Assembly (NCBI GenBank): GCA_000004695.1
Contig: CM000150.2
Coordinates: 2,816,001 to 2,880,000 of the forward strand
Source of the DNA: Dictyostelium discoideum
Taxonomy: Eukaryota
Reading direction: 5' to 3'
Length of the DNA stretch: 64,000 bases
The notes below the pieces were generated by a model, which searched no databases, was not told the origin of the DNA, and saw only the letters and a list, made by a program, of their open reading frames with translations. Below are positions 1,548 to 61,852 of this stretch, one piece after another (position 1 is the first letter of the stretch; each line of letters begins with the position of its first letter). The position numbers were made by a program, and so were the translations under genes.

Positions 1548-1634
1548 GACTCCTTAGCATAGTGGTTTATTGTAATTGTCTCCAAAACGTTAGAAGTTAG
1601 CAGTTGGTCCAGGGTTCAACTCCCTGAGGGGTCT
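1548..1634 (+). tRNA. tRNA-Trp (anticodon CCA) with a ~13-nt intron 3' of the anticodon
   Basis: The acceptor stem GACTCCT pairs with AGGGGTC at 1627..1633, with one G-U pair. The T-arm is CAGGG-TTCAACT-CCCTG. The anticodon arm is ATTGT-CTCCAAA-[intron aacgttagaagtt]-GCAGT with the anticodon CCA. The D-arm is less regular, so a tRNAscan check is needed. A TRE5 fragment upstream and an ex-B box downstream support a genuine tRNA gene. Confidence 0.55.
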
Positions 1635-1675: not shown

Positions 1676-2160
1676 AAAATTTAATGTATTACCATGATTC
1701 TTAATATTATTAATATTATTTATTATGATTTTTAAAAACTTTTAACATTAAACAATCACCAAAAATCTACAGGTCGAAAAATCAATTGTCCAAATTAAAG
1801 AAATAATACCAGAAAAAATTGTAATTAAAATCATCCCAATAGTAATAATAAACCTGAATAAACTACTATTTTTGCTAAAGACCCAGATCTTGCAAATAAT
1901 TAATAGCATTTGTAAAAGTGGTTTTTTTTTAGACAAATACAATGTACATTTTAATTTAATTTAATGTAGAGCGTCTAAAAAAAAAAAAAAATTTTGGCGA
2001 TAGTGATACCAGTTTGGATATATATTCTAATGTTGGTCATTCCGTAACTAGTAACTCACCTAAATATCAAAAAAATAATTTAAACAATGATATAAAAAAT
2101 TTATAACCTATAATTTGAAAAGCTATAGAGATTAAAGGGGTTATGCTATTGAAATTTTAT

Positions 2161-2997
2161 TTATTTTTTTGAAGCTTTTTTAGTTTTTTTTGGTTTGGTA
2201 GCAGCTTGAACTTTTGGTTTTAATTTAGAGGTTGGTTTTTGGGGTGCTAGCTGTTTTTTTTTATCTTTTTCACCTCTTCTCATTTCAGCAATGCTTAGTG
2301 TTTTTGCAATACCATCGGTTTTTGATTGACGACTTGGTCTAGTTGAAATTGGGACAATTGGTTGTTTTTTTGGGGTATCTTCTTTTTCTTCTTCTTCGTC
2401 TTCTTTTTCTTCTTCATCTTCTTCCATTTCTTTTTCTTCTTCTTCCTCCTCTTCTGGTTCTTTTTCTTCTTCTTCCTCTTCTGGTTCTTCTTCTTCTTCT
2501 CCTGGTTGTTCTTCTCCTGGTTGTTCTTCTTTTGTTTGTTCTTCTTCAGGTTGCTCTTCTTCAGGTTGTTCTTCTTCTTCTTCTTCTGATTGTTCTTCTT
2601 TTGGTTCTTCTTCTTCTTCTTCTTGTTGTTCTATTTCTTTTACTTTTTCTTCTTCTTCTTCTTCTTCTTCTGGTTGTTTTTCTTGCTCTTCTTGTTCCTC
2701 TGGTTCTTGTTCATCCTGTTTTTCTTGGGTTGGTTGAACATTTTCTTCATTTTGATTATTACTTTTTTCGTCATCATCGTCATCCATTTGTTTATCTTCT
2801 ACTTTTTGATGGATAGAGGTTTCAAGGGATTGATCATTTGATTTACCCTCAACATCACTTTCTTCTTTTTGTTGAGAGTTGATAATACTTTCATCATCTT
2901 CAATTTCTTGGAATGGAGAATCCTTTTTATCTTGTTCAGTATTTTCCATTTCAACGTTTTGATTATCGTTCTTTTCTTCATCTCCCATTACCTCATC

Positions 2998-3058
<61 letters not shown>

Positions 3059-3465
3059 GTATCACCTTCTAATTCTTGAAATTTTTCATCATCTTCTTGT
3101 GGTTGTTGACTACTAATATTAGATAGAATTGAATTATTTAAATCATTAAAAGTTGATAGATTTTCATCACTTTTTTTTAATGACTCATTTTCTTGAGATT
3201 GAACGAATGATGAATCACTTTGTTGAGATTGAAAAATGTCACTATCAACAGTGGTATCGTTATTGTTTGAACCTTTATCGGTTGGAGTTGAATATTTTTC
3301 ATCTTGGTCAAAATCAATTGATTGACCAGATGTGTTACCACTTGTTTTACTTAGAAATTGGTTTGTAAATGGTGAATTAAATTGATCATTATCAGAATCG
3401 TCATCTGAAGAATTTTCATTTTTAGAAATTTCTCCACCACTTTCATCACTTTCATTCATTTTCTT

Positions 3466-3498
<33 letters not shown>

Positions 3499-3504
3499 TT
3501 CTTT

Positions 3505-3587
<83 letters not shown>

Positions 3588-4159
3588 CTTCTTCATCATT
3601 ATTATTAAATTGAACTTTTGGTAATGGTTTATGAGCTACTACTCTTTTTGGTTGTTTTGGTGAATCTTCTTCCTCTTCTTCATCTTCTTCTTGCTCTTCT
3701 TCATTATCATCCTCTTGTTCATCTTCATCATTATCTTCTTCATTATTATAATTATATTGATTTTTTACAATTTGACTATTATCTTCATCAGAGGAAGAAC
3801 CAATTTCCATTGGTTCATCTTGAGTGCCACCACTACTACTACTATTTACGATTGGTTGTCTCATAAATTGTTGAGTTGGTACTCTATAATTACCATCATC
3901 CTCTTCTTCACCATCGTCATCATCATCATAACTTTGATCATCTTCTTCATCTTCTTCATCATAATCATCATCATCTTGAGGTGATAAGAATTTTTGTTGT
4001 TGTTGTTTTGATGGTTGTAGTCCTGAATAGGTAGAGAATTTTGGTGGTTCTTTACCACCATGTTTTGGTCTTTCAAAATCTTTAAATCTATCTTCTTCTG
4101 AATCATCATCTTCTTCGACAATATCATCTTCAAGTTCTTCTTCAGTATCATCAGTTTCA

Positions 4160-4258
<99 letters not shown>

Positions 4259-7200
4259 AATAGTTTTTGATGTTTTTGATTTTGTAAGAATTGTTGAGCT
4301 TGCGAAGCTTGTTGATCATCTAATTCATCATCGTCATGAACTACAGCACTATCATCATCCTCTTCTTCTTCATCTTCTTCATCCTCTTCTTCATCTTCGT
4401 TTGAATCAATTTTATAGATATCTTCAAACTCTGAATCTTCATCATCATCATCGTCATCATCAGAATCATAATTTTCATCATCATCATCATCATCATCATC
4501 AGAATCAGGCATACCTCTTTTCTTTAATTTTGGAATTGGATATTCTCTATTTAAACTATCTTTAAATCTAACATTTGTAGTTTTCTTGGCAGAACCACCA
4601 CTTTTAAGTGCAGATTTTAATGGTGAACCTTGTGGAGTACTACCACTAGCAACTGATAAATTTGGTGAAGATGTTGTAGTTGAAGTTGTAGTTACCATTG
4701 TTGGGAAAATCATATCAAGAGAAGATTTATTTGAGGTTGCAACTTGTTCTTCTTCTTCTTCTTCATATTCTTCATCATATTCTTCATATTCTTGTTCTTT
4801 TATTTGTTTCTGTTGTTGTTGTTGTTGTTGTTTTTGTTGTAGTAATAATTGTGAATGAACTTCCATTTGATGTTGTAAAAGTTCTTGTTGTCTTTGGAAA
4901 TCTAAAAGTTTTTCTTGTTGATCTTCAAATTCTTTTTTAATTCTTTGTTGTTCTTGTAATTCTTTTTCTTGTTGAGCCAATCTTTGTTGAATTAATAATC
5001 TCTCTTGTTGTTCTTCATTTGATTTCTTTGTTAGAATCTCTAAATTTGAAATGGGAGCAGTTGATAAAGTTGATGATAAATATAAGGAATCATTATAAAG
5101 TTTTGGAATTGGTGATGGCATTACAATTGGTTTTTGAATGAACGATTGTGGTGGTACTAAATTAACTTTTGAAATTGATTTTGGTAATAATGGTATATTA
5201 TCTTCTTCACTATTTAAAAATTGTTGTGGTTGTGGTTGTTGTTGTTGTTGTTGTGATTGTGGTTGTTGTTTTGGTTTATCTTGTGATTCATTTGTAATAT
5301 TAAAATGAATTGGTCTTTGAATTAATGGTAATGATTGTTCATAATTTAATAATAAATGATTGATAGTATCATGACCATCGAAAACATCACCATTGACTCT
5401 AGTGGATTGATAGTAACGATTAACTTTACAAGCTTCAGGAATACGACCTCTTTTAATATAATATAAAGAGATTAGAGATGAAGCTTTCATTTTGAAAAGG
5501 AAATGTAAAAATACTTGTTCTTCAATTTCATCAAGAGACATATTTAAAATTAAATCCAATTTCTTTAAATTAAATGTATAATTAAATATTGAAAATAATA
5601 ATCTTTCAATTGAATCGATTGTTAATTGATCTTGTAAACGATTTCTAAAACTACGTTGGAATAAGATTGCCTCTAGAATTGAATGATTTGATAAAAGAAT
5701 TCTAACATATAACTGAGCTTCATCTGGAGTTTGTGGTTGGAAATTAAAACCTTTCATTAAAAGTTGAGCATAATTTTTGAATCCAAAACTATAAAATCTT
5801 GCTAAAATTGGATAAAGATATTTCTTTGTAACTTTTGAAGAATTTAATAATGTAAATGCACTTTTAATATCTTCATCAATTAAATTACTATTATTTTCAC
5901 GATTGGTGGCATCTTCATCATCATCATCATCGTCATCAATATTCATTTGATCTTGTGATTTTAATAAATAACTATCTAATTTCCAAATACCCATAATAAA
6001 ACTATAATAATTACTAGAGATATGGAAAGAACCAAAGAATGATTTTAAAGTTTCCGATTGATGTAAACTCTTTCCATTACTACCATTACCACCATTAAGA
6101 TCAGTTAATTCTAAATCTATTAATAAATAGAATAGTACTGAAATCTTTTTTGTAAATTGTTGAGATGATTCAAAAATTTTAAAGAATGATTTCATAGTTT
6201 GAGAATTATGTGGTGGATAAGAACTCATTATTTGATTACCATCAGTCGTTGTTGTTGTTGTTGTTGTTGTTGTTGATGTCGATGACGATAAATCAATATT
6301 TGAATAGAATAAATCAATTAATAATCTATCCGAAAGATATTGATTAGTTCTACCAATATTACCCATTTCAATTGTTAATTTCTCTTTAATAATTTTTCTC
6401 TTTTGAATTGTATAATTTCTAACTGATTCCATATCATTCAATGTTGATGGTTTAAATAAACCAAAATATAAAGACCATTTTAAAATTTCAATAAATCTTG
6501 CAATATTAATTGCTTGATCAATTTTAATTTTTAAAGTATCTGGTAATAAATTGGAATTTGAATTTAAATTTGAATTTGAATTAGAACCACCACCACCACC
6601 ACCACCATCAATTATCATATCATTTGAATTTAATTTATTTAAATTCTCTTGAATATATCTATCAGCTAATGATTTAAAAATACGAACTAAATCTGTAATT
6701 TTAACATAAACTAATTCTAAAAGTTTTGGTGTATCAGAATTTAATTTACTATAAATTTCAGAGAGACCAAAATTTCTATTTAATGTTTGAAAATGTGACC
6801 AAAACGATTCCAATATTAATTTTGCATTTGATGATTTATAATTTAAAATGTAATCCTTTACAATTGAAATTAAATTATTATTTAATGAAAATATTAATAA
6901 ATCATTTCTTTGTTGTTGTTGATCAGATTTATAGAATGGGAAAATATTTGATTCTACAAATTTAACATAGACTGAATTTAAAAGTGTTGATGATTCAAAT
7001 AAAATTGCACCCTTATTCGATAATTCATATACTAATCTCTCTTTTGGACTTAAATAATCTATATTATCAATAGTTGAAAATGATAATAATTTAAATTTAA
7101 AATTTGGATGATAAATTGTTAAATTTAATTTATTTTCTTCAAAATTTTCATAATTATCATCAAAGTTATCACTACCACTACCACTATTACTACCACTAGT

Positions 7201-8352
7201 TTGATATTGATCTTCTTTACTTAAAAATACTTTACTATTATTATTTTCTAATTGATAAAGTACATTATTTAAAACTGATTGTTGATCAATCCAAATTGAA
7301 TGATAACCATTATTTTTAAAGTTTCCATTCTCATCATCCAATTTAATTGAGTGTAACCAATGTTGTTGAGAATTTGAACTATAATTTATACCATGTCTTT
7401 CTAATAAAAATAAATCAAATAATTTAATTTCAATTTTAATTGTACCATTTTCAATGAATTGATAAATAAATATTGATTTTGATTTTGGTATAATTCCATT
7501 ATTTAATTTTAAATCTTTATTTTGATAAAGATATGACATTAATAAAATTTCACCAAATTGATTAGTTTGACTATTAGTTTGATTAATTTTTGTAATATCA
7601 ATTGGTGTATCAACATTTTGAGTTAATGAAATTAAATTATTAATTGTTTTACTTGAATCTGGTGATAATTGTAAATCAAATTCTAATTTATATAAAATGA
7701 TTGAAATGTTATTATTTGAAGATTTATTATTCTTTGAACCTCTACCAATCCATAGATGACTAACACTTGATGTATCATCATCTTCCAACTCTTGATAGAG
7801 AAAGTTGGTGACTGGTGATTGTTTATTCTCTAAATGACTAACACTTGAATGCAATCCAACCTCTCTAGCTGGTGAACAATAATACAATTTGAAGTTGTTA
7901 CTTGAGAATAACTGAAATGTTCCAATGCTATAGCCAATTGCTATCATTCTTAAACTCTCGATATATTCAATCGATGTAACATCCAATTGAGTAAATTGGT
8001 TGGTTTGTTGTTGTTGTTGTTGTTGTTGCTGTTGCTGTTGTTGTTGTGGATATTGGTGTTGTAATTTACTCTTTAAATTTTGTTGTGTAATACCATTACG
8101 ATCTTCAACTAAATATCCCTCTGATGAATGTTTACCTGCTGGATATTCAAATTTGTAACTATTTCCATTAAATAATTGATCACCACCTAAAATAAAATAT
8201 GGTACTAAATTATTGGTCTTATTATTAAAGAAATGTTTATAATCATAATTTGTTATATCTTGTAATATTAATTGATTCTTTTTTTTTTTAAAAAAAAAAA
8301 AATACAAAATAGATTAAAAAAAATAAAAAATAATTAATATTTGATTTTTTTC

Positions 8353-9930: not shown

Positions 9931-12040
9931 ATGTTAACAGTAAATTTTTTAGCAACAAATAATTTTAAGACAAAATATTCCGATCTTTCTAAAGATACAA
10001 CGATTGATAGTCTTAAAATACAATTTTATAGAGAACATTCTTCAAATTTGCCTTTGCCATCTTCTGTATTCATTGAAAGTGATGAAGAGTCAAATAATGA
10101 TAATCATGTAAATAATAATAATAATAATAATAATGGTGATAAAGAAGTTGAATTTAAAGAAATTAATCAAAGTGATGAAAAAGTTGTTGAAGAAAAAACC
10201 AATCATTATTCAAGAGCACATTCATCAATTATTCATTCACATCAAATTAGATTTATTTTCTCTGGTAAACAATTAGAGAATTTTTCAACACTTGAGGAAA
10301 ATAAAATTGAAAATGATTCAACTATTATCGTTGCAGTATCACCATTCCTTGTAAATATCGAAGAACAATTCATTCAACATCAAAAGAAACAAAATCAAAA
10401 AGAATCATCAAATCAAGACCAATCAGATACAGTATTCGTTGGTGTTGCTAAAAGAGATCTCTCCTATATGGGTGGTACTATTGAAGAGAAAATAAAATAT
10501 AAACTATCAATTAATGATCGTTCATTTAAATCATCATCATTACAATCAAATTCTCAAGAATTACAAAAATTAGATGATTCAACTACCTTTAATCTCTTGA
10601 GTAGAATTAATAATTTCAATGATTCAACTATAACTAAAGATCAAACTGCATCCCCAATTATTCCAAATGTAAATTTAATTCCATCAACTAAATCATTTAA
10701 TAATGATTCTAAACTTGATTCAACATTAGAAACTAGTTTAGATAGATTATCACTTTATGAAATTCCAAGTAGAGATAAAATGGATTATTTAAATTCATCA
10801 TCACCACCAACAAATAATCCTACTACTACTACTTCTACCGCAACAACAACAGCAACAGCAACAGCAACAACAACAACAACAAAAACTAATCAAGAAATTA
10901 TTAAACCAAAATTATCAATTGAACATTTTTCACCAAATGGTGAAGTTTCATTTGCTGATTCAATTTCAATTATGTTTAATAGACCATTCCTTGATTTATC
11001 ATCAAATACAAAAGAAATTGAACTTCCAATTAAAATAGTTCCACCAGTTAAAGGTGCTAGTTGGCAATCAGTTGATGGTATTCTTTTTAGATATAGATTA
11101 CCAACATCTGAACCAACAACAACAACAACAACAACATCCTTTGGATTAAATTCATCACAACCAAACTTTTTCCCATTATCAACAACCTATAGGGTATCGG
11201 TTGAATGTTCAAACTTTAAAAAACTTTTCAAAGAAGATATTGCTCCATTAGAATATTCATTTACAACTTCACCACAATCATTACTAAATTGGGAATTTAA
11301 TAATGATTTAATCTTACCACAAATCAAATTAACATTTTCACAACCAATTGATTGGAGTAAATCTTCTGCCATTGCAAATTTATTTTCAATTAAAACCAGT
11401 TCAAAATTAGATCCAAAACTCACAAATCTTTCTTTTGTTCCATTAAACACTAATGATGAATCATGTCATTGGAAGAAACAATTGGAGCAAAGTTCAACCA
11501 CTGTTAGAGATAAAATATTTTGTGTTTCAATTACATCAAAGAATATTATAAAATATGAATCAACCATTGAAGTTGATGTTAAAATTGGTTCAATCGCTTC
11601 AAAGGAAGGTCCAAATTTTAATCCAATGAAAAATATAATTGGAAGGATTTTAACACCATCATTTCTTAGTATAAAAGCTGATTTATTACCAGAGTCCATA
11701 TTAAGTAAAGCAACAGAAGTTAGTTTTTCTTCAAATAATATATTGGAATCTAAAATTATTCCTTCAAATCAATATGACAATTATTTCTCAATTATACCAA
11801 AGGTTGAAATTACTTCAGTCTCTATATGTGGTAAAAGTGTTCGTATTTTTGCCAAATTTAAACATTCCCAAACTTATTCAGTTTCGATTAAAAAGTTTAA
11901 AGATATTTATGGTCAAATTGGTGATTCTCATGGAATTTTCTCTTTTCCAAATATTCCAATTAAAATTTGGACTCATCCATCAATTTCTTCATTTACAAAT
12001 AATTTTTATAATTTAGATCCAAATTCACAGTATGTATTAA

Positions 12041-12080
<40 letters not shown>

Positions 12081-12089
12081 TAATATATT

Positions 12090-12162
<73 letters not shown>

Positions 12163-15100
12163 GACCAATTTTTAAAATTAATTCAACAGGTACAGATCAA
12201 TTAATTATTAGAGCATTTACAGTTTCAAAGAAAACATTAAAAAGAAAAACAAAAATTAGTGGATCATTAAAAGTTGATGTTAATAAAATTAAAAATGAAA
12301 ATGGTGAATTTGAATCAATTTCAACAACTACAATTGATTTAGCAAGTTTCTTTGGTGGTAGAAATGTTCATAGTTGTAAATTTCAATTACTTCTTTTTTC
12401 AATTTCATATCCTGGAAATTTAATTTCTCAAGTTTTTGAAAAAGGAGATGATGGTACACAATTTTTATTACAATATACACCAATCAATGTAAATTCTTTT
12501 GAAGTTGGTAATCAATTCATTATAAATGCAACCGATTCAATCTCTAGAGAAAATTTAAAGAATTTATCATTAAAAGTTTATAATGATGATGATGGTGATG
12601 AAAAAGATAAAAAATCATTCAAACAATACACGATAACAGATTCACAAATTCAATTATTTGAAAAATCTACAATCGGTGGTTCTCATATGTTTATTTCAAC
12701 ATTGGATGGTAAAAACAAATGTTTATATCAAGTTCCTATCAATGAAATCAATAAGAAACCTTATGAATTCACTACCATAATTTTTGCCCAACAAGGAATT
12801 TTTCGTCCTGGCGATACTGTTAATGTTAAAGGTACAATTAGAGTTGTAGTTGATGAAGGTGTAATCTTACCAGATTCAAAGTTTTTCTCAAAGTATATTG
12901 ATGTTTATCAAAATGATGATATGGTAAATATATCATACACTTTAAAGGATGCAAAGAAAAAAGAAGTTGCCAAAGGTATAACAAAATTAAATGAATTTGG
13001 TTGCTTTGATCTAAAGTTAGTATTACCATTGGATATTAATTTGGGTAACTGTTCAGTGGTTTATAAATATTGTAATGAAGAATTCTCATTCTCTGATATC
13101 AATGTTCAAGAGTTCAAATTGAAAACATTTTTATTGGAATGCTCAATGTCAACCGAATCAAATCGTGGTACCTTTGAATTGGAGACACCATTTGGTGTTG
13201 AATTATTTGCAAAATCATACACTGATGAAATTATACCAAATACAACTGTAGATTGGAAAATCACCGTAAGACCATTGACACCAATCCTCTCGAATTTGGA
13301 TAAAGCTTTCAATTACTTTAGACATGAAACTGATAATATGTATTTTGGTGAGAGTTTTGCTTATAAAAGTAAAAGATCACCAAATGGTAAACATAATTTA
13401 GATTTGGTTCTTCAAGAATGTTCACAACGTTGTGAAGTTAGAGTTCATGCAACTGTAGCCGATGCTTCAAATAATCAAGAGGAAATCTCAAAGAATTTTA
13501 TTGTAGAGAATACTAAATTCACAAACTTTGGTGTTTTAAGTTCCAGTTCAACGATAACTCATCTTATTAATGTCGGTCAAGATTTCCATGTTGATATGTC
13601 ATTGCGTTACTTTGACAATCAACAATCATTTGATGGTAAAATCGATGCAGAAATTCAAAAGATTCCATATGAAGAAGATTTATTACCAGAGAATGTTCAT
13701 AAGAGTACAATCATACCACATACTGATACTCCTTTAAGATTCTCTTATCAATTCAATGAAACTGGTTATTATAAAATAAAATTAAACTATAGTAATGGTG
13801 GTGAACAATTATCTCAATATCATACCATTTCATTGTTTGTATTTGGTAAACAATCTCAAGCAGAATTAGAATATAAAGAATGTACTGCACCTGTTAAACA
13901 AACAACTACAAACAACACCTCATTACTCTATGGAAAGGAAACATTTAAAGCTAAACCAAAACTTGATATCAATTGTTCATTAGATAAAGAGATTTATCAA
14001 TTGGGTGATACAATTAAAATGTGTATCTCTTCAAAATCATTGAATGCCAAGGGTTACATTTGTTGCTCCAAAGAGAATACAATCATTAATGTCATACCAA
14101 TTCAATTGATTGATGGTCAACATGATTGTAAATTTGAAATCAATGAAAAAGTTTATTATCAACCATTATTCTATGTTTATTTAGAAGGTAGTTTGTTGGT
14201 GGAAATAAATGGTGGCCAAAAGGTTAATCGTTTAACAAGTTCATTCGTAAAGGTACCAGTAAAGATTGATTACACTGACAAGCTATTGAATGTTCAAGTT
14301 GAAAAATGTAATAAATTCCAATCTCCATCAGAAGAATCAAATATTACTATCAGTGTAAAAGATAAAAATCAAAAACCACTCTCAAATGCTCATGTTTCAT
14401 TGATTATTGTTGATCAAGCAGTTTTAGATATAACAAAGCATTCAATTAAAACCCAATGGGATCCATTAAATACTTACTTTGGAGATGGTTCATTTTTTAT
14501 TGGTAGAAATAAAATGAACTCTCTATTGGACAAAACAATCTATAATGATCCAGTAGAAATTAAAACCATTGAATTGGATCTTGAAGATTTCCAAGGCGAT
14601 AATGAATTACAAATCATTAATATTAAATATATGGCAGGTAGAATCATTCAATTAAAAGTATCGGATGAAACAACCATTGGTGAACTTCAACAAATGATTA
14701 TGGACAGAGATGGTCTTCCACCATCATCACAACGTTTATTCTACTTGAATAAACAAATTGATTCAAACGCAACAATGAAACTTAAAGAATTTTCAATCGT
14801 TAATAAAGCAACTCTTAATTTGGTAATCCGTTTACATGGTGGTACAAATACACCACCTTCAGATGACAAACCACTAGCTCAAGATTTGAATAAACCAATT
14901 AGAGTACGTTCAAACTTTATGCCTTTGGCTTACTTTGGAAGTTTAAATACCAATCAAGATGGTAAAGTAACATTTACTTATAAACTTCCAGATAATCTTT
15001 CAACCTTTAGAGTTATGGCTTTGGTTCACTATGGCAAAGATCAATTTGGTAGTTGTGAACATACTTTTATATCATCGTTACCAATAATGGTTCGTCCAAG

Positions 15101-17171
15101 TCCACCACGTTTCTTAAATCATAATGATAAAGCAATATTCCCAATTATGATTTCATCAATCGTTGATTGTGATTTATTTTTTAGTGGTGCAATTCGTTCA
15201 AATAATTGTAACATTGAAACCAAAGGATTCAGTGGTGTACTTCCAGCAAAATCTAGAATCATATTCCCTGTCCATGTTAATGCTTTAGTTTCAAATTGTA
15301 TTGCAGACTTTCAATTTGTTGCAAAAACTCAATTATTAGATCATTCACAAGAGATTTGTGATGCAATCTCATTTAAATTCCCTGTTTTCTCTTCAAGTGT
15401 ATTGGAGACAACAACTATCAATCATAGTTTAGTAAATTTGAAATCAAAGAAAGAAATTTCATCTCACAACTTAAAACTTGATAATTGGAAAGATTTAGAT
15501 CAACAATTGGGTGGATTAACAATTACTCTATCAAAAACTAAACTTCAAAAGATTTCATGTTCAGTTAAAGATTTATTACATTATGAATACTCTTGCTCTG
15601 AACAAATTGCTTCAAAATTATTAGCCCTCTCCACCTTTATAAAGTATCCACATTTATTAGAAGAAAAAGATATCAAAGCTTTAGGTCTTGAGAATATTAA
15701 AACCAATAAGAAACCTTTGGAAGATATGGTTGAAATTTTAAAGAAACGTTATCAATCATCAGATCATTCATTCACTTATTTCGATGATAAAAAGAGTGGT
15801 TCATATGAATTTGTTTCAGTATTTGTTTACTTTGTATTGAATCAAATCTCTGATCTATCGGAAGAAGCCAAAAAATTGGCATCAAAGGCTGAAGCTTACT
15901 TTTCAGGATCTGCCAATGTAATGGTTTTTAATAGAGATTCTTATGAAAAGAATAAATTCCAATATCTTTTAGGTAAAGCATTTGCATCATTTGTCTATGG
16001 TACCATTAAACAAACCTCTGTACCTCATACAAGTTTTATTTCAAAGGTTTTACAAACTGCAAAATTCGATTTCTCAAATAGCCAATATCAAGAGATCTTT
16101 ATCTATCTCTCACAATTCTACAAGAGTCACCTCGATTTCAAAAATATTTCAAACTATGTTACAATTACTGGTTCCTTGGCTTATGTTACTTCTAGTCCAA
16201 TCTTTGGATTCTATGGGGATACTCGTCTTCAGTCAATTTTAATACTTTCACTTTTAGAAAGTGGAAAGACATCACATAAAGATCATCCACTCTTGGAACG
16301 TTTAATAAGTGGTTTAGCTCATTTTGTAAATAAAGAAGGTCGTTATGGTACTACTCAAGCCAATGCATTCAATATCTTTGCAATCTCTCAATATGAAAAG
16401 ATGAAATTATCAGGTGAAAAAGTTGATCCAACATTGGATGCAAGTATTATTTTAGGAAATCGCTATTTGGAAAAGAAAAAAGTAACAATTGGTGATTCAG
16501 AAAATTATACAATCACTGTACCTTTCTCTCAAATCCTAAAGAATCAAAAACCATTGATAATTCAAAGAAAAACAAAAGGTACCCTTTATTATAGCATAAA
16601 TCTCTCCTATGCTTCATTGAATCCAATCTCTAAAGCTATCTTTAATAGAGGTCTCAATATTAAAAGAACCTATTATCCAGTTTCAAATTCAAATGATGTT
16701 ATTTATCATTCTCCAATTGGTGTTGACCAACCTCAAACCATTGAAATCAAAGCAGGTTCAAGAGTAAAGGTAACACTTTCAATAAAGGTCGATCATGTTT
16801 CTAGCTTTATAGTTATTAAAGATAGATTACCAAGTGGTTTGGAACCATTACTTTCAAATTCCTATTATCACAATGGTTATTATTTCAATCATGTTAATAA
16901 TCGTGAAAATGGTGTTGAAATTTATTCAAATCTTTTATATCCAGGTGTTTATAATTATTCCTATCAAACTATTGCAATTACACGTGGTACTTTTATTTCA
17001 CCATCAGCAAAAGTAAGTTTAAAAAATTTTTTCTTTTTTTTTTTTTTTTTATTTCTTTTCATATTACTGATATACTTTTTTTTTTTTTTTTTTTTTTTAC
17101 TTTAGATTGAAGAAATGTATTGTCCTGCAACTTTTGGTCGTTCTTCTTCAGAAATTGTATTAATTAAATAA
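9931..17171 (+). CDS. Alpha-2-macroglobulin/thioester-containing-protein (A2M/TEP) family protein, ~2,337 aa, with an N-terminal and an internal ubiquitin-like domain; 3 exons
   Basis: Exon 1 is 9931..12029. Intron 12030..12163 runs GTATGT..AATAG and carries (TAA)n. Exon 2 is 12164..17012. Intron 17013..17105 runs GTAAGT..TTTAG. Exon 3 is 17106..17171 (IEEMYCPATFGRSSSEIVLIK*). The phases check (2099 + 4849 + 66 nt = 2338 codons), and the frame is open from 12164 with no internal start, so the join to exon 1 is needed. A2M-like motifs are 'LPDNLSTFRVMALV' (cf. PDSITTW), 'SLPIMVRPSPPRF' and 'YEYSCSEQIASKLLAL' (cf. GCGEQ). Ubiquitin-like stretches are 'DTTIDSLKIQ..IRFIFSGKQLENFSTLEENKIENDSTIIV' at the N-terminus and 'IQLKVSDETTIGELQQMIMDRDGLPPSSQRLFYLNKQIDSNATMKLKEFSIVNKATLNLVIRLHGG' internally. 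Confidence 0.7.
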
Positions 17172-18457: not shown

Positions 18458-19595
18458 ATGTTCAATGCTTTTAAAAAGATATGGGCACCAACTGTAAATA
18501 ATGATGAAGATGAATCAAAAGAAAGACAAGAATTAGGAATTTCAGAAGAGTTAATACAATTGGTTGATAATATATCTAGATTCCCTGAATCTTTTAAAGA
18601 TTTTCCTTTTCAAACTTTAAAAGATCCTTGTAGGTTTTTTTTTTTTTTTTTTTTTTTGATTATAGTGGTATAGTAGTATTAGTATTTGTAGTAGTAGTAA
18701 TATTGACCATCAATAATATTCATACATTTATAATATATTTATATATATAATATTATTTACAGCACTTAAAATGACAAAAATTCAAAAAAGACATGTTGAA
18801 AAGATATTAGAGATTGTTAAACCATTAAATGATTTAAGATTTCAAATGTGTCCATCAGTCATGAATGATGAAAAATTTTGGAAGATTTACTTTACACATA
18901 TTCAAGTAGTATCAAAAGGAATGTTTAATCAATCACCATCATCAACAACAACAGGTACAACAACTACTCAACCACAATCACCAACAAACTTTTTAGAAGA
19001 ATTGGATTCTCAATTTGATAAATTATCATCAAAGAAGAAACCATTCGATGAAGGTATCTCTGAAGAAGAAGATAGCTATTTCTCAATAAATACCTATATG
19101 TTACAATCAAAACAACAACAATTATTACAACAACAACAACAACAGCAGCAACAGCAACAACAATTATTATTACAGCAACAACAACAACAAACTCAACCAA
19201 ATTCATTAAAATCATCAACTTCTTCAATTACACCAAATAAATCACCAATATCAGGTGGTGGTGGAATACAAATAGGAAATAAAATAGCAGTAACTCAACC
19301 AGTTGCTGCCTCCTCTCCAACTTCAACTTTAACACCAACATTAAGAAACAATACTGATAATAATAAAAATAATAATAGTGATGAAAACAACAACAACAGT
19401 AATGCTATATCACTACAATCAAAACCAAATAATAATAATAATAATAATATTGAAATTTTAAACAATACCAATAATAGTAATAATACTTTAATAGATACAA
19501 ACTTTGATAATATAAATAATACAAGTATTATTACAGATGTACAACGAAATATAGAATTGGATAAAAGTATAGATAATTTTTTAAATCCAAGTTAA
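18458..19595 (+). CDS. BSD-domain protein (2 exons), poly-Q/N-rich C-terminus
   Basis: Exon 1 is 18458..18629 (MFNAFKKIWAPTVNNDEDESKERQELGISEELIQLVDNISRFPESFKDFPFQTLKDP). Intron 18630..18762 runs GTAGGT..TTACAG. Exon 2 is 18763..19595. The BSD signature is 'MCPSVMNDEKFWKIYFTHIQVV' (conserved FW..YF). Confidence 0.65.
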
Positions 19596-28540: not shown

Positions 28541-29608
28541 ATGGCAGATAAGAAAATTATTATCGATTTTGGATCAGGTTGGACAAAATGTGGTTTTGAA
28601 GGTGAAGTAACACCAAGTGTAGAATGTTTAACAATTGTTGGACATCCGAATAAACAAGGTGATACAAAATTGTTTTATGGTAAAGAAGCAGTTGCAAGAT
28701 TTAGTACATCAAAATTAGTGTATCCAATAAAGAATGGTATAGTTTGTAATTGGGAAGATATGGAAAAGTTTATAGAGAATACATTTTATTATAAATTAAG
28801 AGTTGAACCACAATATCATTCGGTATTACTAACAGAAACAACAATGAATACTAAAGAGAATAGAAATAAAATGGCAGAGATTATGTTTGAAACTTATGAT
28901 ATACCATCAATTAAAATTGAAAATCAACAAAAGTTATCATTTGATCATTTATCAACAGGTACTAAAAACGGTACAATAGTTGATATGGGTGATGACTCAA
29001 TTAATATAGTGCCATTTGTTGATGGTCAACCAGTGACTGATGCCGTTGTTACACTTGATTTCGGTGGTCGTAATTTAACAGGTTATTTGGCCGCTTTGTT
29101 ATTCCAAAATGGTTATAGTTTCTCAACAGTTGCTGATCACCAAATTGTACGTCAAATTAAAGAGAAACATTCTTTCATTGAATTGGATTATGAAAAACCT
29201 TCAAATACTAAAAAACAATCATTTTCTTATCCTGGTTCATCTGATATTCAAATTGATGCTCGTTATTTATACGGTTGTCCTGAACCACTTTTTAGACCTT
29301 CACTAGTTGGTTTTGATTCTTCTGATAGTCTTTGTAATTCAACTTATTCTTCAATTATGAAATGTGATCAGTCAGTTCAACAATCATTATTTTCAAATAT
29401 AATTTTAACAGGTGGTTCTTCAATGTTTACTGGAATTAAAGAACGTCTTGAATTGGAAATTTCAAAAATTAATACTACCAGCAATAAAATTAATATAATA
29501 TGTTCAAAAGATCGTAAAAATTCAAATTGGTTAGGTGCTTCAAAATCAATTACTTCAACTGATAATTGGGTTTCAAAAGAAAAATTTACTGAAAAGGGTA
29601 CTTTTTAA
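28541..29608 (+). CDS. Divergent actin / actin-related protein (355 aa)
   Basis: A single ORF that aligns along its whole length with actin: 'IIIDFGSGWTKCGF' vs 'LVIDNGSGMCKAGF', 'NWEDMEKFIENTFYYKLRVEPQYHSVLLTETTMNTKENRNKMAEIMFETYDIPS', 'VTLDFGGRNLTGYL', 'YSSIMKCD' and 'LTGGSSMFTGIKERL'. Confidence 0.75.
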   Translation: MADKKIIIDFGSGWTKCGFEGEVTPSVECLTIVGHPNKQGDTKLFYGKEAVARFSTSKLVYPIKNGIVCNWEDMEKFIENTFYYKLRVEPQYHSVLLTETTMNTKENRNKMAEIMFETYDIPSIKIENQQKLSFDHLSTGTKNGTIVDMGDDSINIVPFVDGQPVTDAVVTLDFGGRNLTGYLAALLFQNGYSFSTVADHQIVRQIKEKHSFIELDYEKPSNTKKQSFSYPGSSDIQIDARYLYGCPEPLFRPSLVGFDSSDSLCNSTYSSIMKCDQSVQQSLFSNIILTGGSSMFTGIKERLELEISKINTTSNKINIICSKDRKNSNWLGASKSITSTDNWVSKEKFTEKGTF

Positions 29609-33999: not shown

Positions 34000-34044
34000 T
34001 TAAATCGAATAAATATAGGTTTTTTTCTAAAAAAAATATCAAAG

Positions 34045-34117
34045 GTTTTATAGTGTAATTGGTTAGCACCCAGGACTTTGAATCCTGTAATCTGAGTTCG
34101 AGTCTCAGTAGAACCAC
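34045..34117 (+). tRNA. tRNA-Gln (anticodon UUG)
   Basis: Cloverleaf read by eye. The acceptor GGTTTTA pairs with TAGAACC. The D-stem is GTGT/GCAC. The anticodon arm is CAGGA-CTTTGAA-TCCTG with TTG. The T-arm is CTGAG-TTCGAGT-CTCAG. The discriminator is A. Confidence 0.85.
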
Positions 34118-39251: not shown

Positions 39252-39324
39252 TGGTTCTACTGAGACTCGAACTCAGATTACAGGATTCAAAGTCCTGGGT
39301 GCTAACCAATTACACTATAAAACC
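39252..39324 (-). tRNA. tRNA-Gln (anticodon UUG), inverted copy
   Basis: An exact reverse complement of the tRNA at 34045..34117. Confidence 0.85.
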
Positions 39325-44256: not shown

Positions 44257-47558
<3,302 letters not shown>

Positions 47559-48583: not shown

Positions 48584-49847
48584 TTATGAGATAATATCTA
48601 ATAATAATTTTTTGAAATCACCACTACAATCAGCTTGAATATCATGAGCTAATGAATTCTTGAAGAGAGTTGAATAAGCAGTTTTAATTTGTGGCATATT
48701 GTGCATTTGAGTTACAACAGTACGAATGAGTTTGTTATCATTTGTACCAGCACCTTTCATTGATTTGTTTAAGATTTCAGCGAAATAACCATATGGGTTG
48801 AGAGCATAGGTAACGATAGCGATTAAACCAGTTTTAATTGAACCAGAGAATTCAGAATCGATTGCTTTGATGAGTGAGTGTTTTTTGTGATGTTTAATGT
48901 ATTCACTAGCGACGGCAGCAATATGTGGTAATGAACGAGAGGTGAGAATTTTGATGAATTCCTTTTCGTCGGTACCAATTTTACCTTCACCAGCTTTGTA
49001 GAGATCTTCAGCATCTTTTGAAACTTGCATTGGGTTGATGACTGGTGATTCATCTCTTGGTTCAGTGAGTTTCTCTAATAATTTCTTAAAGTCACCACTT
49101 GCTTCGGATTCAAGACGATCTTTTAATGATTTACCATGTTTATTCTTGAAGATTTGTTTAATGTATTCCATTTGTACATTACTACGGGTAACTAAAATTT
49201 CAATTATAGTGTTCTCGTTGGTACCTGCACCAGCGCAAGCACTGTGAATTTGTTCAACATCGAAATGAGCTGGTTCAGTTAAGAGGGCAACTAAACATTT
49301 TTCAAAGTTACCACTGGTTTCAGATTTAATATCTTGAATTAAATCTTTGCTATATTTGGCAGAGAACTCTCTCTTGATTTGTTCACGTTCAGCCCAATTT
49401 CTATTGGCTAAAACTTTAATTAAATCAGATTCATTTGTACCAATACCTTTCATTGCTTTTCTTAAAACTTCAGCATCATGTTTACAATCATGAGTGATTG
49501 TACCAACAAAGTAACCTTGATGATATCCAACTACCATACCTGGTGCAAATCCAACTGGTACACCAACTGGTACACCAACTGGTGGATAACCTTGTTGTGG
49601 TGGATAACCTTGTGGTGGATAACCTTGTTGTGGTGGGTAGCCTTGTTGTGGTGGGTAACCTTGTTGTGGTGGGTAACCTTGTTGTGGTGGGTAGCCTTGT
49701 TGTGGTGGATAACCTTGTTGTGGTGGGTAGCCTTGTTGTGGTGGGTAACCTTGTTGTGGTGGATAGCCTTGTTGTGGTGGATAACCTTGTTGTGGTGGAT
49801 AACCTTGTTGTGGTGGATAACTAATTAATTTTAGAAAAAAGAAAAAG

Positions 49848-55289: not shown

Positions 55290-56242
55290 GTTTTTATTAT
55301 TATCATCATTATTATTATTAATATTATTATTATTATTATTATTATTTGAAGTAGTTGAGAAATTTTCAAAAGGAGGGTTAAATTTACCTAAAAATTTATA
55401 GTCATTTATATCACAAACTTTTGTATTACCATTATTATTGTTATTGTTATTGTTATTGTTATTGTTATTGTTATTGTTATTGTTAATGTTATTGTTATTG
55501 TTATTATTATTATTATTTTTTGAATAGATTGAGTAAATTATATTTGAAATTTTTGAAATATCAAAACTTAATTGGATATCACATGTTTCAGTATTAATCG
55601 ATAGGATTATTGCTCTTATAAAGTCACCTTTATCATAATAATTAACATCTCTAATCATACTTTTTGAAAATTCAAAAACACTAATTGTTGCTTTAATTCG
55701 ATATTGTGATATTGATTTTAGTTCATTTGGAATTTTAATAAATTTATTATCACAATCTGATGTTGATTGGACATTACTAATCTCTAAAATTTCAATTCCT
55801 AATAATCCATTCTTTTCATCTTTCCAAATTATTGAACCAGTTATTAAAATTGAGTTCTCTCCATTTTCAAATAATTCATTTAATTTCTATAGACAATAAT
55901 TTAATTAATAAGATAAACAAAATAAAATAAAATAAAATAAAATAAAATAAAATAAAATAAAATAAATAAATAAATGAAATCACTTACTAAATATATATTT
56001 GATAATGATAATTTGTTTTTCTCTTGAATTGATTTAATTTTCAATGCGTCAAAGTATTTTGGAATATTACAAAGTCCACCTGATATTAAATAATTATTTG
56101 TGTTTGTTGAACTTACAACTTCATTATAACTTTCAACGGGTGGGGATTGTAATTTTAATTGTTCAACTTTTAAAACTAAAAAATCAATGAGTGGCGAAGT
56201 AGAATTTATCGTTGTAGTTGTGGTTGTGGTGGTCTTTATTGA

Positions 56243-56340
<98 letters not shown>

Positions 56341-56390
56341 CTTCTAAAATTAATGATTTGTCATTTTTTTTCCATTCATTTTCTCTTTTT
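53907..56390 (-). CDS. TPR-repeat protein with a Ser-Leu repeat and RS / RD dipeptide-repeat C-terminus; at least 3 exons, 5' end not located
   Basis: The last exon is 54885..53907 (..KNGIKYAKSGQYEKAINYYKEALNIDRDHKDAYVALGAVYANTSQFEKAISNFKQALKIDPNDVNADKYFKA.., then poly-N, SLSSLSSLSS, (RS)n and (RD)n). The preceding exon is 55886..54997 (KLNELFENGENSILITGSIIW..SNQNFIWAQSS, donor GTATGT, acceptor CTATAG). An upstream exon ends at 55988 (..ISGGLCNIPKYFDALKIKSIQEKNKLSLSNIYL, donor GTAAGT) and is open to ~56390 with no in-frame ATG found. Confidence 0.55.
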
Positions 56391-56412
56391 TGTTGTGAAA
56401 AATTTGTGTGCG

Positions 56413-56452
<40 letters not shown>

Positions 56453-56686
56453 ATAAAAAAAGATTTTTGCCTAATTAAATTAATTGAAAAAAAAAAAAAT
56501 GAAAAAAAAAAATTTAAAATAAATTAAAAAAAAAAAAAAAAAAAATAAAATAAATAAATTGTATTATGAAATTAGAAATTAAAGAGATATTAAATTTTAA
56601 TTAAAATAAAAATTTTTTTAATTCAAAAAAAAAAAAAATGAAAGAACGAACGAAATAAAAAAAAAAAAAAAAATGAAAGAAAGAAA

Positions 56687-56733
<47 letters not shown>

Positions 56734-57355
56734 AGAACAAACGAAAAAAAAAAAAAAAAAAGAAATCCAAACCTGCATAAAAAAAAAAAAAATAATTTTT
56801 TTTTTTTTATTTTTTTTTTTTATTATTAACATGAAAAAAAAATTAAACTTTAAAGAATTTTTTTTAGAATTTATAATAGGAAATAAAATGATGTTATAAA
56901 ATAAAATCAAATTTAAATTTAAATAAAATTAAAAATAGATAAAAAAAAAAAAAAAAAAAAAAAAAAATTAAAAAATAAAACTATATTAATAAATTATATA
57001 TTTATAATTTTAACTATAAAAAAATTTCCCTTTTTCAAAAAATTAACCATTTATTTTTTTTACTCTTTCGAATAAGATCTAATTTGAAGTTCTTTAATCA
57101 ATGCAATTAAAAAAGTTGAGTTGAAAAAAAAAAAAAAAAAAACTTTGATTCAACTGAACATAAAAATCTATATTTGGTAATTGATCTGCCTCAAATTTAT
57201 CCAAAAATAGAAAATATCTGGTTAAATCTATTTATTATAGTAAAATGGAGTTTTTTTTTGTTTTATTTTAAAAAAAAATGTCGTTATTCCTCTTTTTTAT
57301 TTTTTTTTTTTTTTTATAAATTAACATTTTAATTTTTTTTTTTTTTTATTAAATT

Positions 57356-57400
<45 letters not shown>

Positions 57401-57669
57401 CTTAATTTTAAATCTTATCAAATGTCTTTTTAATTTTTAAAATTATATTAACAACTTAAAGAAATAAAAATAAAAATTATAAAATTTTATAAATATAATA
57501 TCTTTTTTTTATTTTTATTTTTTTATTCTAAATTTAGAAAAAAAAAAAAAAAAAAAAACTTTTATAACAATTTTAAAAATAAAATCTTAAAAAAAAATAA
57601 AAATAACTTGTAATTAAATCAATAATTTATAATAATAAAAAAATATTTGAAATTTAATTTTTTTTTTAT

Positions 57670-57701
<32 letters not shown>

Positions 57702-57818
57702 TAGTTATTAATAAAATAATAATTCAATCACCTTTTAAACTAATAATAATAATAAAAAAAATATAAAATTATAAATAAATAATAAAATAAAATAAAATAA
57801 TAAATAATAATAATAAAA

Positions 57819-61700: not shown

Positions 61701-61752
61701 ACAATTTTAAATGCCTCCGGATCTAGTAAAAAATATTCTTTTTCAAAAAAAT

Positions 61753-61825
61753 GCCCAGATAGCTCAGTCGGTAGAGCGCAAGGCTTTTAACCTTGTGGTC
61801 GGGGGTTCGAGCCCCCCTTTGGGCG
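61753..61825 (+). tRNA. tRNA-Lys (anticodon UUU)
   Basis: The acceptor GCCCAGA pairs with TTTGGGC. The D-arm is GCTC-AGTCGGTA-GAGC. The anticodon arm is CAAGG-CTTTTAA-CCTTG with TTT. The T-arm is GGGGG-TTCGAGC-CCCCC. Confidence 0.85.
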
Positions 61826-61852
61826 AAATTTTATGTTGGGACCCCAAAAACA

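Follow-up and report, generated by a model that had tools for sequence, protein, structure and literature searches.

Within a stretch of 64,000 nucleotides from Dictyostelium discoideum (GenBank assembly GCA_000004695.1, contig CM000150.2, positions 2,816,001 to 2,880,000; hereafter the window), a three-exon gene on the forward strand encodes a protein of 2,337 residues whose sequence and predicted structure combine the scaffold of a bacterial alpha-2-macroglobulin (A2M) with two ubiquitin-like domains (UBLs). One of them forms the very N-terminus of the protein, and the other appears to have taken the place of the bait region, where it ends in a conserved Gly-Gly upstream of a conserved thioester motif. 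This arrangement suggests, as a tentative reading to which we assign somewhat less than even chances, a cytosolic A2M whose ubiquitin-like bait would trap Gly-Gly-specific proteases covalently. The coordinates of all features are collected in Table 1.

An internal ubiquitin-like domain in the predicted bait position

Both ubiquitin folds that had been proposed in a sequence-only reading of the DNA are supported by our analysis. The internal domain is detected by the Pfam model PF00240 and is modelled by AlphaFold2 (AF2) as a beta-beta-alpha-beta-beta-beta grasp at residues 1517–1588, with values of the predicted local distance difference test (pLDDT) of 85–92. Its residues 1518–1593 align to positions 3–76 of ubiquitin, including the terminal Gly-Gly, with 37% identity (28/76, in a range of 25–29 identical positions out of 76), and the earlier description of a match that holds nearly residue for residue was thus overstated. 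In the model the domain is connected on both sides by disordered tethers, with pLDDT values below 50 in the upstream tether (model residues 341–376) and of 33–40 in a downstream stretch at about residues 1590–1610 (model residues 453–473), which includes the Gly-Gly. Residues ~1457–1611 fill a hypervariable gap between the motif VDxAxLxL at the end of the bait-region domain (BRD) and the motif RxNF at the start of the next macroglobulin (MG) domain, and the pairwise identity over residues 1457–1515, the block holding the upstream tether, drops to 0.21. Since the same gap constitutes the bait region of bacterial homologues, where it contains a short Gly/Ala-rich loop, the internal UBL occupies the equivalent location. 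The protein thus has an exposed bait-type segment between the BRD and the next MG domain which, unlike the family norm, contains a folded domain. The structure prediction, which had been suggested as a means to locate the insert, shows it with disorder on either side. Taken from sequence and model, the bait region appears to be replaced by a folded UBL that hangs between two flexible tethers.

The conservation of this domain among nine dictyostelid orthologues is selective. In ubiquitin numbering, R42, K48, R72, L73, G75 and G76 are invariant and the hydrophobic patch is retained, with Met, Phe or Leu at the position of L8, Phe or Leu at I44, and Val or Leu at V70. The residue following the Gly-Gly is always small (Thr, Ala, Gly or Ser) and never Pro. 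Among the ubiquitin lysines only K48 is invariant, with K11, K29, K33 and K63 replaced in all nine proteins, K27 in eight (kept in one) and K6 in six (kept in three). From these sequences we infer that a ubiquitin- or UBL-specific protease might process the protein after Gly1593.

The region following the predicted cleavage site can be compared to the A2M of Escherichia coli (YfhM, also termed ECAM), where the disordered and cleaved bait encompasses Arg923–Leu942 and where, once the protein is cleaved, the C-terminal MG domain is bound by Arg956, Gly958 and Asn963 (PMC4498604). In a profile alignment these three residues correspond to K1610, I1612 and N1617, which are located 17–24 residues past the Gly-Gly, and R1615 and F1618 of the motif R-x-R-x-N-F are invariant.

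A bacterial-type scaffold with a predicted thioester

The sequence-only reading had described a giant protein of the A2M or thioester-containing protein (TEP) type. Its membership in the A2M superfamily is supported by Pfam, profile searches, AF2 and Foldseek, whereas the branch to which it belongs is the bacterial one and not that of metazoan A2M and TEPs. In a Pfam scan of the full protein, we found bMG10 (8.5e-21), ubiquitin (6.9e-18, in two stretches), Rad60-SLD (1.2e-10), A2M_BRD (2.8e-8), A2M (1.2e-7) and MG2 (1.1e-6, under its gathering score), and no match at an E-value of 0.1 or better to TED (PF07678), A2M_recep (PF07677), ANA or C345C. Hence, A2M, A2M_BRD and ubiquitin were detected as anticipated, whereas TED and A2M_recep remained silent and the C-terminal domain is bMG10. 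NCBIfam returned no match for the protein or its nearest relatives.

The placement within the superfamily was defined with a profile of 40 homologues searched against solved structures, which matched ECAM at 8e-156 over ~1,580 positions and Salmonella A2M at 3e-153, compared to 1e-55 for human A2M, 3e-53 for TEP1, 5e-49 for CD109, 7e-29 for C5 and 6e-27 for C3. In single-sequence searches of solved structures, residues 1595–2337 found ECAM at an E-value of only 0.011, residues 880–1515 gave no match, and the full-length query was dominated by ubiquitin entries. The AF2 model of residues 1138–2337 (mean pLDDT 78) contains beta-sandwiches and was matched by Foldseek at an E-value of 3e-48, with the native forms of ECAM and Salmonella A2M as its nearest structures (TM-score 0.43) and the activated forms at a greater distance (0.21–0.37).

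For the helical thioester domain (TED), the Foldseek and profile matches cover the portion of ECAM, Salmonella A2M, human A2M and C3 that contains the TED. Its YSCSEQ aligns with YGCLEQ of ECAM, so that the C-x-E-Q motif, whose preservation had been noted before, coincides with the thioester CLEQ of the bacterial protein. C1844, E1846 and Q1847 are invariant in 11 aligned sequences and C[ST]EQ is found in the nine dictyostelids, and a thioester bond between Cys1844 and Gln1847 is predicted from this motif. Towards the C-terminus, E2319, M2320 and Y2321 are nearly invariant as part of an EXMY motif, which in the C-terminal MG domain of bacterial A2Ms protects the thioester and, after cleavage, serves as a binding site for the bait (PMC4498604). 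The A2M Pfam domain is the most conserved block of the protein (pairwise identity 0.56).

In light of the bMG10 domain, the graded profile matches, the alignment of CSEQ with CLEQ and the presence of EEMY, the protein classifies by its sequence as a thioester-bearing A2M of the bacterial, ECAM-like branch. An assignment as a metazoan-type TEP was rejected, as the metazoan Pfam models are silent and the matches to human A2M, TEP1 and C3 are far weaker than to ECAM, and the conserved CxEQ rules out a type II A2M, which in YfaS and MagD-like proteins lacks the thioester. Some relatives are labelled 'YfaS' by JGI, yet CxEQ is present and conserved.

Ahead of the part shared with ECAM, whose match begins at profile position 361, the protein carries an N-terminal Ig-like region in which bacterial relatives have PF13205. 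The linker that precedes it (10500–10905, residues ~190–325) contains the short dictyostelid-conserved motifs LL.R...E and LD.LSL, the former of which is shared with bacterial and Cavostelium relatives (consensus LLxRLxPL). The architecture, with UBLs embedded in a thioester-protein scaffold, had been called non-standard, and hidden Markov models (HMMs), profile, AF2 and Foldseek all concur in this respect.

Gene structure and identity

The three exons (9931–12029, 12164–17012 and 17106–17171) are joined at GT..AG junctions into a single open frame, whose translation is 100% identical to the D. discoideum AX4 protein XP_645989.2 (EAL72081.2, UniProt Q55DZ2), which confirms the proposed gene of 2,337 residues. 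The sole database name of Q55DZ2 is "ubiquitin domain-containing protein". All peptides that had been quoted from the translation were recovered, with LPDNLSTFRVMALV at residue 1641, SLPIMVRPSPPRF at 1671, YSCSEQIASKLLAL at 1842 and the string of the internal UBL at 1527. The GC content amounts to 27–29% in the exons, as opposed to 3.7% and 10.8% in the two introns, and in positions 12055–12163 of intron 1 nearly pure poly(A) precedes an (AAT)n microsatellite. Exon 1 contains several columns that are invariant with respect to bacterial homologues (P335, F349, P366, W378, T418, F444, E559 and G560). Removal of intron 1 restores the motif NLDP..P (residues 694–701), whose P701 is invariant in 11 sequences, and removal of intron 2 restores PSAK-IEEMYCP (with PSAK-IEEMY at residues 2313–2321 and the hyphen marking the junction), the counterpart of bacterial PPAKAEEMYxPE. 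Since both junctions thus restore motifs kept in intron-less bacterial homologues, exons 1, 2 and 3 form one gene.

An error of annotation or assembly, by which two or three separate genes such as a UBL gene and an A2M gene were wrongly fused, has in our view next to no chance of being correct. Mergers do occur in annotations of this family, as illustrated by the orthologue P0188 described below, whose gene model has a kinase joined upstream. However, the architecture is repeated in nine dictyostelid species with independent assemblies, the internal UBL is located mid-way in one unbroken exon, and the splice junctions recover bacterial motifs. Such a fusion was thus rejected on the basis of the orthologues' architecture and the restored junctions.

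The N-terminal ubiquitin-like domain and the location of the protein

If residues 1–160 are scanned alone, PF00240 matches at 2.3e-9 (37.3 bits), which is above its cut-off, and the same is found in 7/7 orthologues. The AF2 model shows strands at residues 2–8 and 13–19, a helix at 25–39 and further strands at 104–110 and 130–138, with pLDDT values of 92–96 in the folded parts, and thus describes a beta-grasp that is split by a low-complexity insertion. Its best Foldseek matches are ubiquitin, with a TM-score on the target of 0.82–0.87, in agreement with the Pfam assignment. At its end there is no Gly-Gly, and in all orthologues the domain terminates in ..IIVAVSPF. From its sequence it is predicted to be an integral UBL that is not conjugated to other proteins.

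In the dictyostelid proteins we found no hydrophobic N-terminus, as judged from a Kyte-Doolittle 12-residue maximum of <=1.2 (no dedicated signal-peptide predictor was run), and no segment resembling a transmembrane region anywhere in the chain. The equivalent maximum is ~1.9–3.2 in 13/14 bacterial or metagenomic relatives, as expected for a signal sequence, and the exceptions without signal peptide among the relatives are the metagenomic P0052 and the protein from Cavostelium. The N-terminal UBL stands at the position of the signal peptide of the bacterial relatives, and with this replacement the dictyostelid protein is probably cytosolic, its sequence pointing to a location in the cytosol or nucleus.

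Orthologues and origin

Relatives were collected in an exhaustive HMM search, which found 8,838 proteins and recovered five dictyostelid orthologues that a word-indexed search had missed. Following two Dictyostelium species in the ranking, five proteins, from Cavenderia fasciculata, Acytostelium subglobosum, Synstelium polycarpum, Heterostelium album and Polysphondylium violaceum, contain 2,177–2,259 residues and match with E-values of 1e-150 to 1e-169, after which the matches weaken to ~1e-70. A ninth orthologue is P0188 (eukprot dictyostelid, 3,390 residues), whose gene model places a protein kinase of ~1,100 residues ahead of the N-terminal UBL; this kinase probably reflects a merger of neighbouring genes, the alternative being a real fusion. 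An internal UBL ending in RLxGG together with C[ST]EQ is found in 9/9 orthologues, and the N-terminal UBL in each of those with a complete N-terminus. Compared to a mean pairwise identity of 0.34 for the whole protein, the internal UBL reaches 0.53 and the two halves of the N-terminal UBL 0.49 and 0.56, whereas the insertion loop of the latter (residues 46–101) falls to 0.14, and the linkers and N-terminal loop to 0.14–0.25. The UBLs are thus among the best-conserved parts of the protein.

In a neighbour-joining tree, the Dictyostelia form a single long-branched clade (bootstrap 100/100), in which the order of species is consistent with vertical descent. Their nearest outgroup is a bacterial A2M subfamily of ~2,000 residues, which is encoded at >593 bacterial genome loci in Acidobacteriota, Chloroflexota, Myxococcota, Planctomycetota, cyanobacteria and others, as found in a scan with a tight alignment whose pattern is conserved enough for genome searching. 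Together with a homologue from Cavostelium, these proteins are the nearest relatives outside of the Dictyostelia (E ~1e-70). The N-terminal Ig-like extension, CSEQ, PRFLN and EEMY are common to them and the D. discoideum protein, but they contain short Gly/Ala/Met-rich baits, no UBLs and, except for Cavostelium and P0052, signal peptides.

The Cavostelium homologue (P0028) is a transcript of the protosteloid amoeba Cavostelium apophysatum that encodes 2,033 residues with a Met/Ala/Gly-rich bait and lacks both UBLs and an obvious signal peptide. Because it is nested among bacterial and metagenomic sequences, apart from the Dictyostelia, it may originate from an independent acquisition or from contamination. 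A position as sister of the Dictyostelia, which would imply an older amoebozoan origin, was recovered in 0/100 bootstrap replicates.

Acquisition of the scaffold by horizontal transfer from bacteria is most likely, and in the most economical reading a bacterial gene entered the ancestor of the Dictyostelia, with both UBLs added afterwards. Horizontal transfer had already been proposed in 2008 for COG2373-like proteins of Dictyostelium (Elias and Novotny, PMC2430557).

Discussion

The described features suggest a mechanism in which the principle of bacterial A2Ms would be directed towards the ubiquitin system. A protease recognising ubiquitin or UBLs, such as a deubiquitinase, a ULP-type or an LxGG-specific enzyme, either the amoeba's own or one injected by an intracellular bacterium, would dock on the internal UBL and cleave the chain behind Gly1593. 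The released tail (residues 1594–1617), with its R-x-R-x-N-F motif, would then compete with the TED for the C-terminal MG domain, as it does in ECAM, upon which the TED would swing out and the thioester between Cys1844 and Gln1847 could acylate a lysine of the protease, thus resulting in its covalent capture. In the most speculative step, the non-cleavable N-terminal UBL might act as a clearance signal for the proteasome or autophagy receptors, in a role similar to the receptor-binding domain of plasma A2M. The same design suggests that the protein could serve as an intracellular sensor, and not only as a trap, for ubiquitin-cleaving proteases. In ECAM, the replacement of the bait by a specific cleavage site leads to covalent capture of the cognate protease alone (PMC9918453), and since bait swapping thus redirects capture to a chosen protease, the sequence of the bait can set specificity.

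Several observations weigh against such a trap. Arg74 of ubiquitin, which contributes to the recognition by many deubiquitinases, is not conserved in the internal UBL of the nine orthologues, where it is replaced by His, Tyr, Ser or Phe. Peptide-linked ubiquitin fusions are normally cut fast by housekeeping deubiquitinases, and the trap would consequently fire constitutively, unless a UBL with 37% identity escapes these enzymes. In a cytosol that is expected to contain millimolar glutathione, quenching of an activated thioester may outpace its reaction with a lysine. Moreover, the trap by itself does not need the N-terminal UBL. Finally, the Pro of YPYxCxEQ, which is described as important beside the thioester of bacterial A2Ms (Y-P-Y-x-C-x-E-Q; PMC4498604), is replaced in dictyostelids, where the first Tyr is kept in contexts such as YEYSCSEQ, YKHSCSEQ and YSNACSEQ.

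Rapid processing is at the heart of a different explanation, which we consider unlikely, where housekeeping deubiquitinases would cut after the Gly-Gly during or soon after synthesis to yield a two-chain protein. Its thioester would later join another target, for example a cytosol-exposed bacterium or a damaged vacuole, with the two UBLs providing a built-in ubiquitin coat to which receptors of autophagy or of the proteasome are recruited. Such maturation can be compared to the furin processing of C3 and C4 at a topologically equivalent site and to cut TEP1, and we take the bait site to be topologically equivalent both to the processing site of C3 and C4 and to the place of the ANA insertion. 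The apparent cytosolic location and the small residue following the Gly-Gly, which permits general deubiquitinases, would fit this scheme, and it accounts for both UBLs, the conserved hydrophobic patch and K48. It is at odds with the fact that cleavage of the bait in bacterial A2Ms by itself exposes and discharges the thioester (PMC4498604). Because bait cleavage is the trigger in these proteins, constitutive cutting should leave the molecule spent. The AF2 model, albeit computed as a single chain, is also nearer to the native than to the activated state.

Cleavage would be dispensable altogether if both UBLs were integral modules as in Rad23 or parkin, which dock the A2M onto the proteasome, a deubiquitinase or a ubiquitin-binding partner, with the A2M body acting as scaffold or non-covalent inhibitor. 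We regard this possibility as rather improbable. The N-terminal UBL, in the absence of a Gly-Gly, must act in such a way, and the thioester-less type II bacterial A2Ms illustrate that the scaffold can work non-covalently (PMC5764988). Nevertheless, RLxGG, the following disordered tether and C[ST]EQ are invariant in Dictyostelia while their surroundings drift to ~21% identity, which is difficult to account for in the absence of cleavage and thioester chemistry, and the exact bait position of the domain would be coincidental. Still further from expectation, and in our opinion highly improbable, is a giant modifier in which the cleaved chain 1–1593 with its free RLxGG carboxyl group would be activated by E1 and E2 enzymes and conjugated as a whole. 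R72, by which the ubiquitin E1 distinguishes ubiquitin from NEDD8, and the Gly-Gly are both invariant, and ubiquitins with N-terminal extensions can be conjugated. However, there is no known precedent for a modifier of 175 kDa, the UBL is merely 37% identical to ubiquitin, and neither the downstream thioester half nor the bait position would be explained.

Most parts of the protein have a counterpart in known systems. ECAM and Salmonella A2M (type I; PDB 5a42, 4ziq, 4rtd, 4u48) display the same order of domains, namely MG domains, a bait between BRD and MG8, CUB, a TED with CxEQ and an MG10 with EXMY. However, ECAM resides in the periplasm as a lipoprotein and its bait is short, disordered and broad-spectrum, whereas the D. 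discoideum protein lacks a signal sequence and the Pro preceding the thioester motif, and contains a folded UBL bait, an extra N-terminal UBL and ~360 more N-terminal profile positions. The complement proteins C3, C4 and C5 belong to the same superfamily, as reflected in the profile matches to C5 and C3, and contain a folded anaphylatoxin domain at a topologically equivalent place, where specific cleavage beside the domain activates the thioester protein. They differ in being extracellular and metazoan, in their four-helix ANA insert that is cut by a convertase, and in their C345C and receptor domains. A specific bait element leading to the covalent capture of one protease class is also found in A2Mcap, an engineered ECAM (PMC9918453). 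A second example of a defined bait may be provided by TEV-cleaved and TEV-conjugated A2ML1 (PDB 7q60–7q62), which is found among the fold matches and known here from the PDB titles. Both constructs are man-made with short linear sites, whereas in the protein described here a natural, entire folded UBL would confer specificity. With respect to the UBLs, the internal domain resembles the precursors of polyubiquitin, Ub-eL40 and Ub-eS31 in that RLxGG is followed by a peptide-linked extension, although it is no conventional ubiquitin precursor since ~1,500 residues precede it. The N-terminal UBL without Gly-Gly resembles the integral UBLs of Rad23 and parkin.

The closest analogy may be found in the same organism. 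DdiCPRas2 (EAL60755.1, 3,933 residues), a second COG2373/A2M-like protein of D. discoideum, has two blocks of A2M homology, which are separated by a circularly permuted Ras GTPase (residues 2844–3013; Elias and Novotny 2008, PMC2430557). It shares with the protein described here the bacterial-type A2M scaffold, the proposed horizontal transfer and the insertion of a folded eukaryotic signalling domain, and its C-terminal block of ~776 residues compares to a post-bait region of 726 residues. It differs in having a Ras-like insert instead of a UBL and in its long unrelated N-terminal half. Judged from published coordinates and block lengths alone, the insert is apparently also located at the bait position. 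If so, two genes would point to a principle of the decoy as bait, with A2M traps carrying folded host-protein baits. An extension of this idea, which we consider an unlikely speculation, is an intracellular, effector-triggered immune trap with an integrated decoy, where a host protein targeted by effector proteases of pathogens would serve as bait (ubiquitin in one case and a Ras-type GTPase in DdiCPRas2), its cleavage would set off the thioester, the effector would be captured covalently and the N-terminal UBL would deliver the adduct to the proteasome or autophagy. If true, such a device would represent the first cytosolic immune system based on a thioester protein, and ubiquitin-based suicide probes would have a counterpart in nature.

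To our knowledge, all characterised thioester proteins of the A2M and complement families act outside of the cytoplasm, in plasma, haemolymph or periplasm, and the A2M baits that we are aware of are flexible peptides. A cytosolic A2M with a folded UBL as bait would extend the principle of the trap to the ubiquitin system, and it would suggest that a defence protein of bacteria has been redirected by a bacterivorous amoeba against proteases that act on ubiquitin, among them the deubiquitinases that Legionella and other intracellular bacteria use as effectors. It would also offer a natural, genetically encodable reagent for the covalent capture of deubiquitinases. The gene and its domain matches are already contained in public databases, and a brief remark on its affinity to bacterial A2Ms and its probable horizontal origin was published in 2008. 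The UBL in the bait position, the loss of the signal peptide and the conservation of RLxGG and CxEQ throughout the Dictyostelia appear to be undescribed, as a search of the literature by accession and subject revealed neither an account of the gene nor any report on a ubiquitin-like bait or on a thioester protein of the A2M family that is cytosolic.

Other features of the window

The window has a GC content of ~22%, which is lowest (11.8%) in the interval 56001–58000. Upstream of the A2M gene, an open reading frame (ORF) of 2,048 residues on the reverse strand (2164–8307) has no Pfam match at an E-value of 1e-4 and the region around it is strongly AT-skewed (-0.43 at 2001–4000). Two adjacent ORFs on the forward strand (44257–46020 and 46239–47555), one ending in a RING finger and the other with a WD40 propeller of the RFWD3 type (1.5e-42), are probably one intron-split gene and together look like an RFWD3-like E3 ubiquitin ligase. 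The genes for actin, annexin, FNIP-repeat and BSD proteins are ordinary eukaryotic neighbours with no evident tie to the A2M gene. Among the four tRNA genes, the one for Trp probably contains an intron in light of its length.

Table 1. Coordinates of the A2M gene, its domains and motifs, and of neighbouring genes in the window.
Feature	Position	Strand	Residues	Remarks
Exon 1	9931..12029	+	1-699 and two bases of codon 700	ATG at 9931; donor GTATGT from 12030; N-terminal UBL, low-complexity linker, bacterial-type N-terminal Ig-like region
N-terminal UBL	9931..10344	+	1-138	begins at Met1
Low-complexity disordered insertion	10066..10233	+	46-101	loop between helix 1 and strand 3; pLDDT <50
N-terminal Ig-like region	10906..12027	+	~326-699	common to the ~2,000-residue bacterial A2M subfamily, absent from ECAM
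Intron 1	12030..12163	+		134 nt, 3.7% GC, GTATGT..ATAG
Exon 2	12164..17012	+	700-2316	stop-free frame, Pfam matches, ECAM profile match; MG domains, bait region and UBL, MG8, CUB, TED, bulk of MG10
MG2 domain	12780..13067	+	906-1001	PF01835 1.1e-6, 29.4 bits vs gathering score 32.8; within ECAM profile match
A2M bait-region-domain match	13977..14429	+	1305-1455	PF07703 2.8e-8; ends in conserved VDxAxLD
Upstream disordered tether	14496..14603	+	1478-1513	
Internal UBL	14610..14843	+	1516-1593	PF00240 6.9e-18; ends in RLHGG (I-R-L-H-G-G)
Gly1592-Gly1593	14838..14843	+	1592-1593	predicted scissile site, cut after G1593; aligned to ubiquitin G75-G76
Downstream acidic disordered tether	14844..14897	+	1594-1611	variable sequence
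R-x-R-x-N-F	14901..14918	+	1613-1618	opens post-bait half of MG8; N1617 aligned to ECAM Asn963
A2M Pfam domain	14943..15143	+	1627-1693	PF00207 1.2e-7; contains LPDNLSTFRVMALV and SLPIMVRPSPPRF
Thioester domain	15543..16415	+	~1827-2117	all-helical (AF2 model residues 690-980)
Thioester motif C1844-S-E-Q1847	15594..15605	+	1844-1847	predicted by alignment to ECAM and bacterial C[AS]EQ
bMG10, C-terminal MG domain	16650..17126	+	2196-2323	across intron 2; 8.5e-21, match to 1-130 of 131
Intron 2	17013..17105	+		93 nt, 10.8% GC, GTAAGT..TTAG
Exon 3	17106..17171	+	2317-2337 and TAA stop	final MG10 strands including EEMY
E-E-M-Y (EXMY motif)	17109..17120	+	2318-2321	
tRNA Trp(CCA)	1548-1634	+		87 nt
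BSD-domain protein	18771-19592	+		
Actin-family protein	28541-29605	+		5.9e-81
tRNA Gln(TTG)	34044-34117	+		
tRNA Gln(TTG)	39252-39324	-		
Four-repeat annexin	48587-49537	-		8e-89
FNIP-repeat protein	57819-58856	+		4e-72
tRNA Lys(TTT)	61752-61826	+

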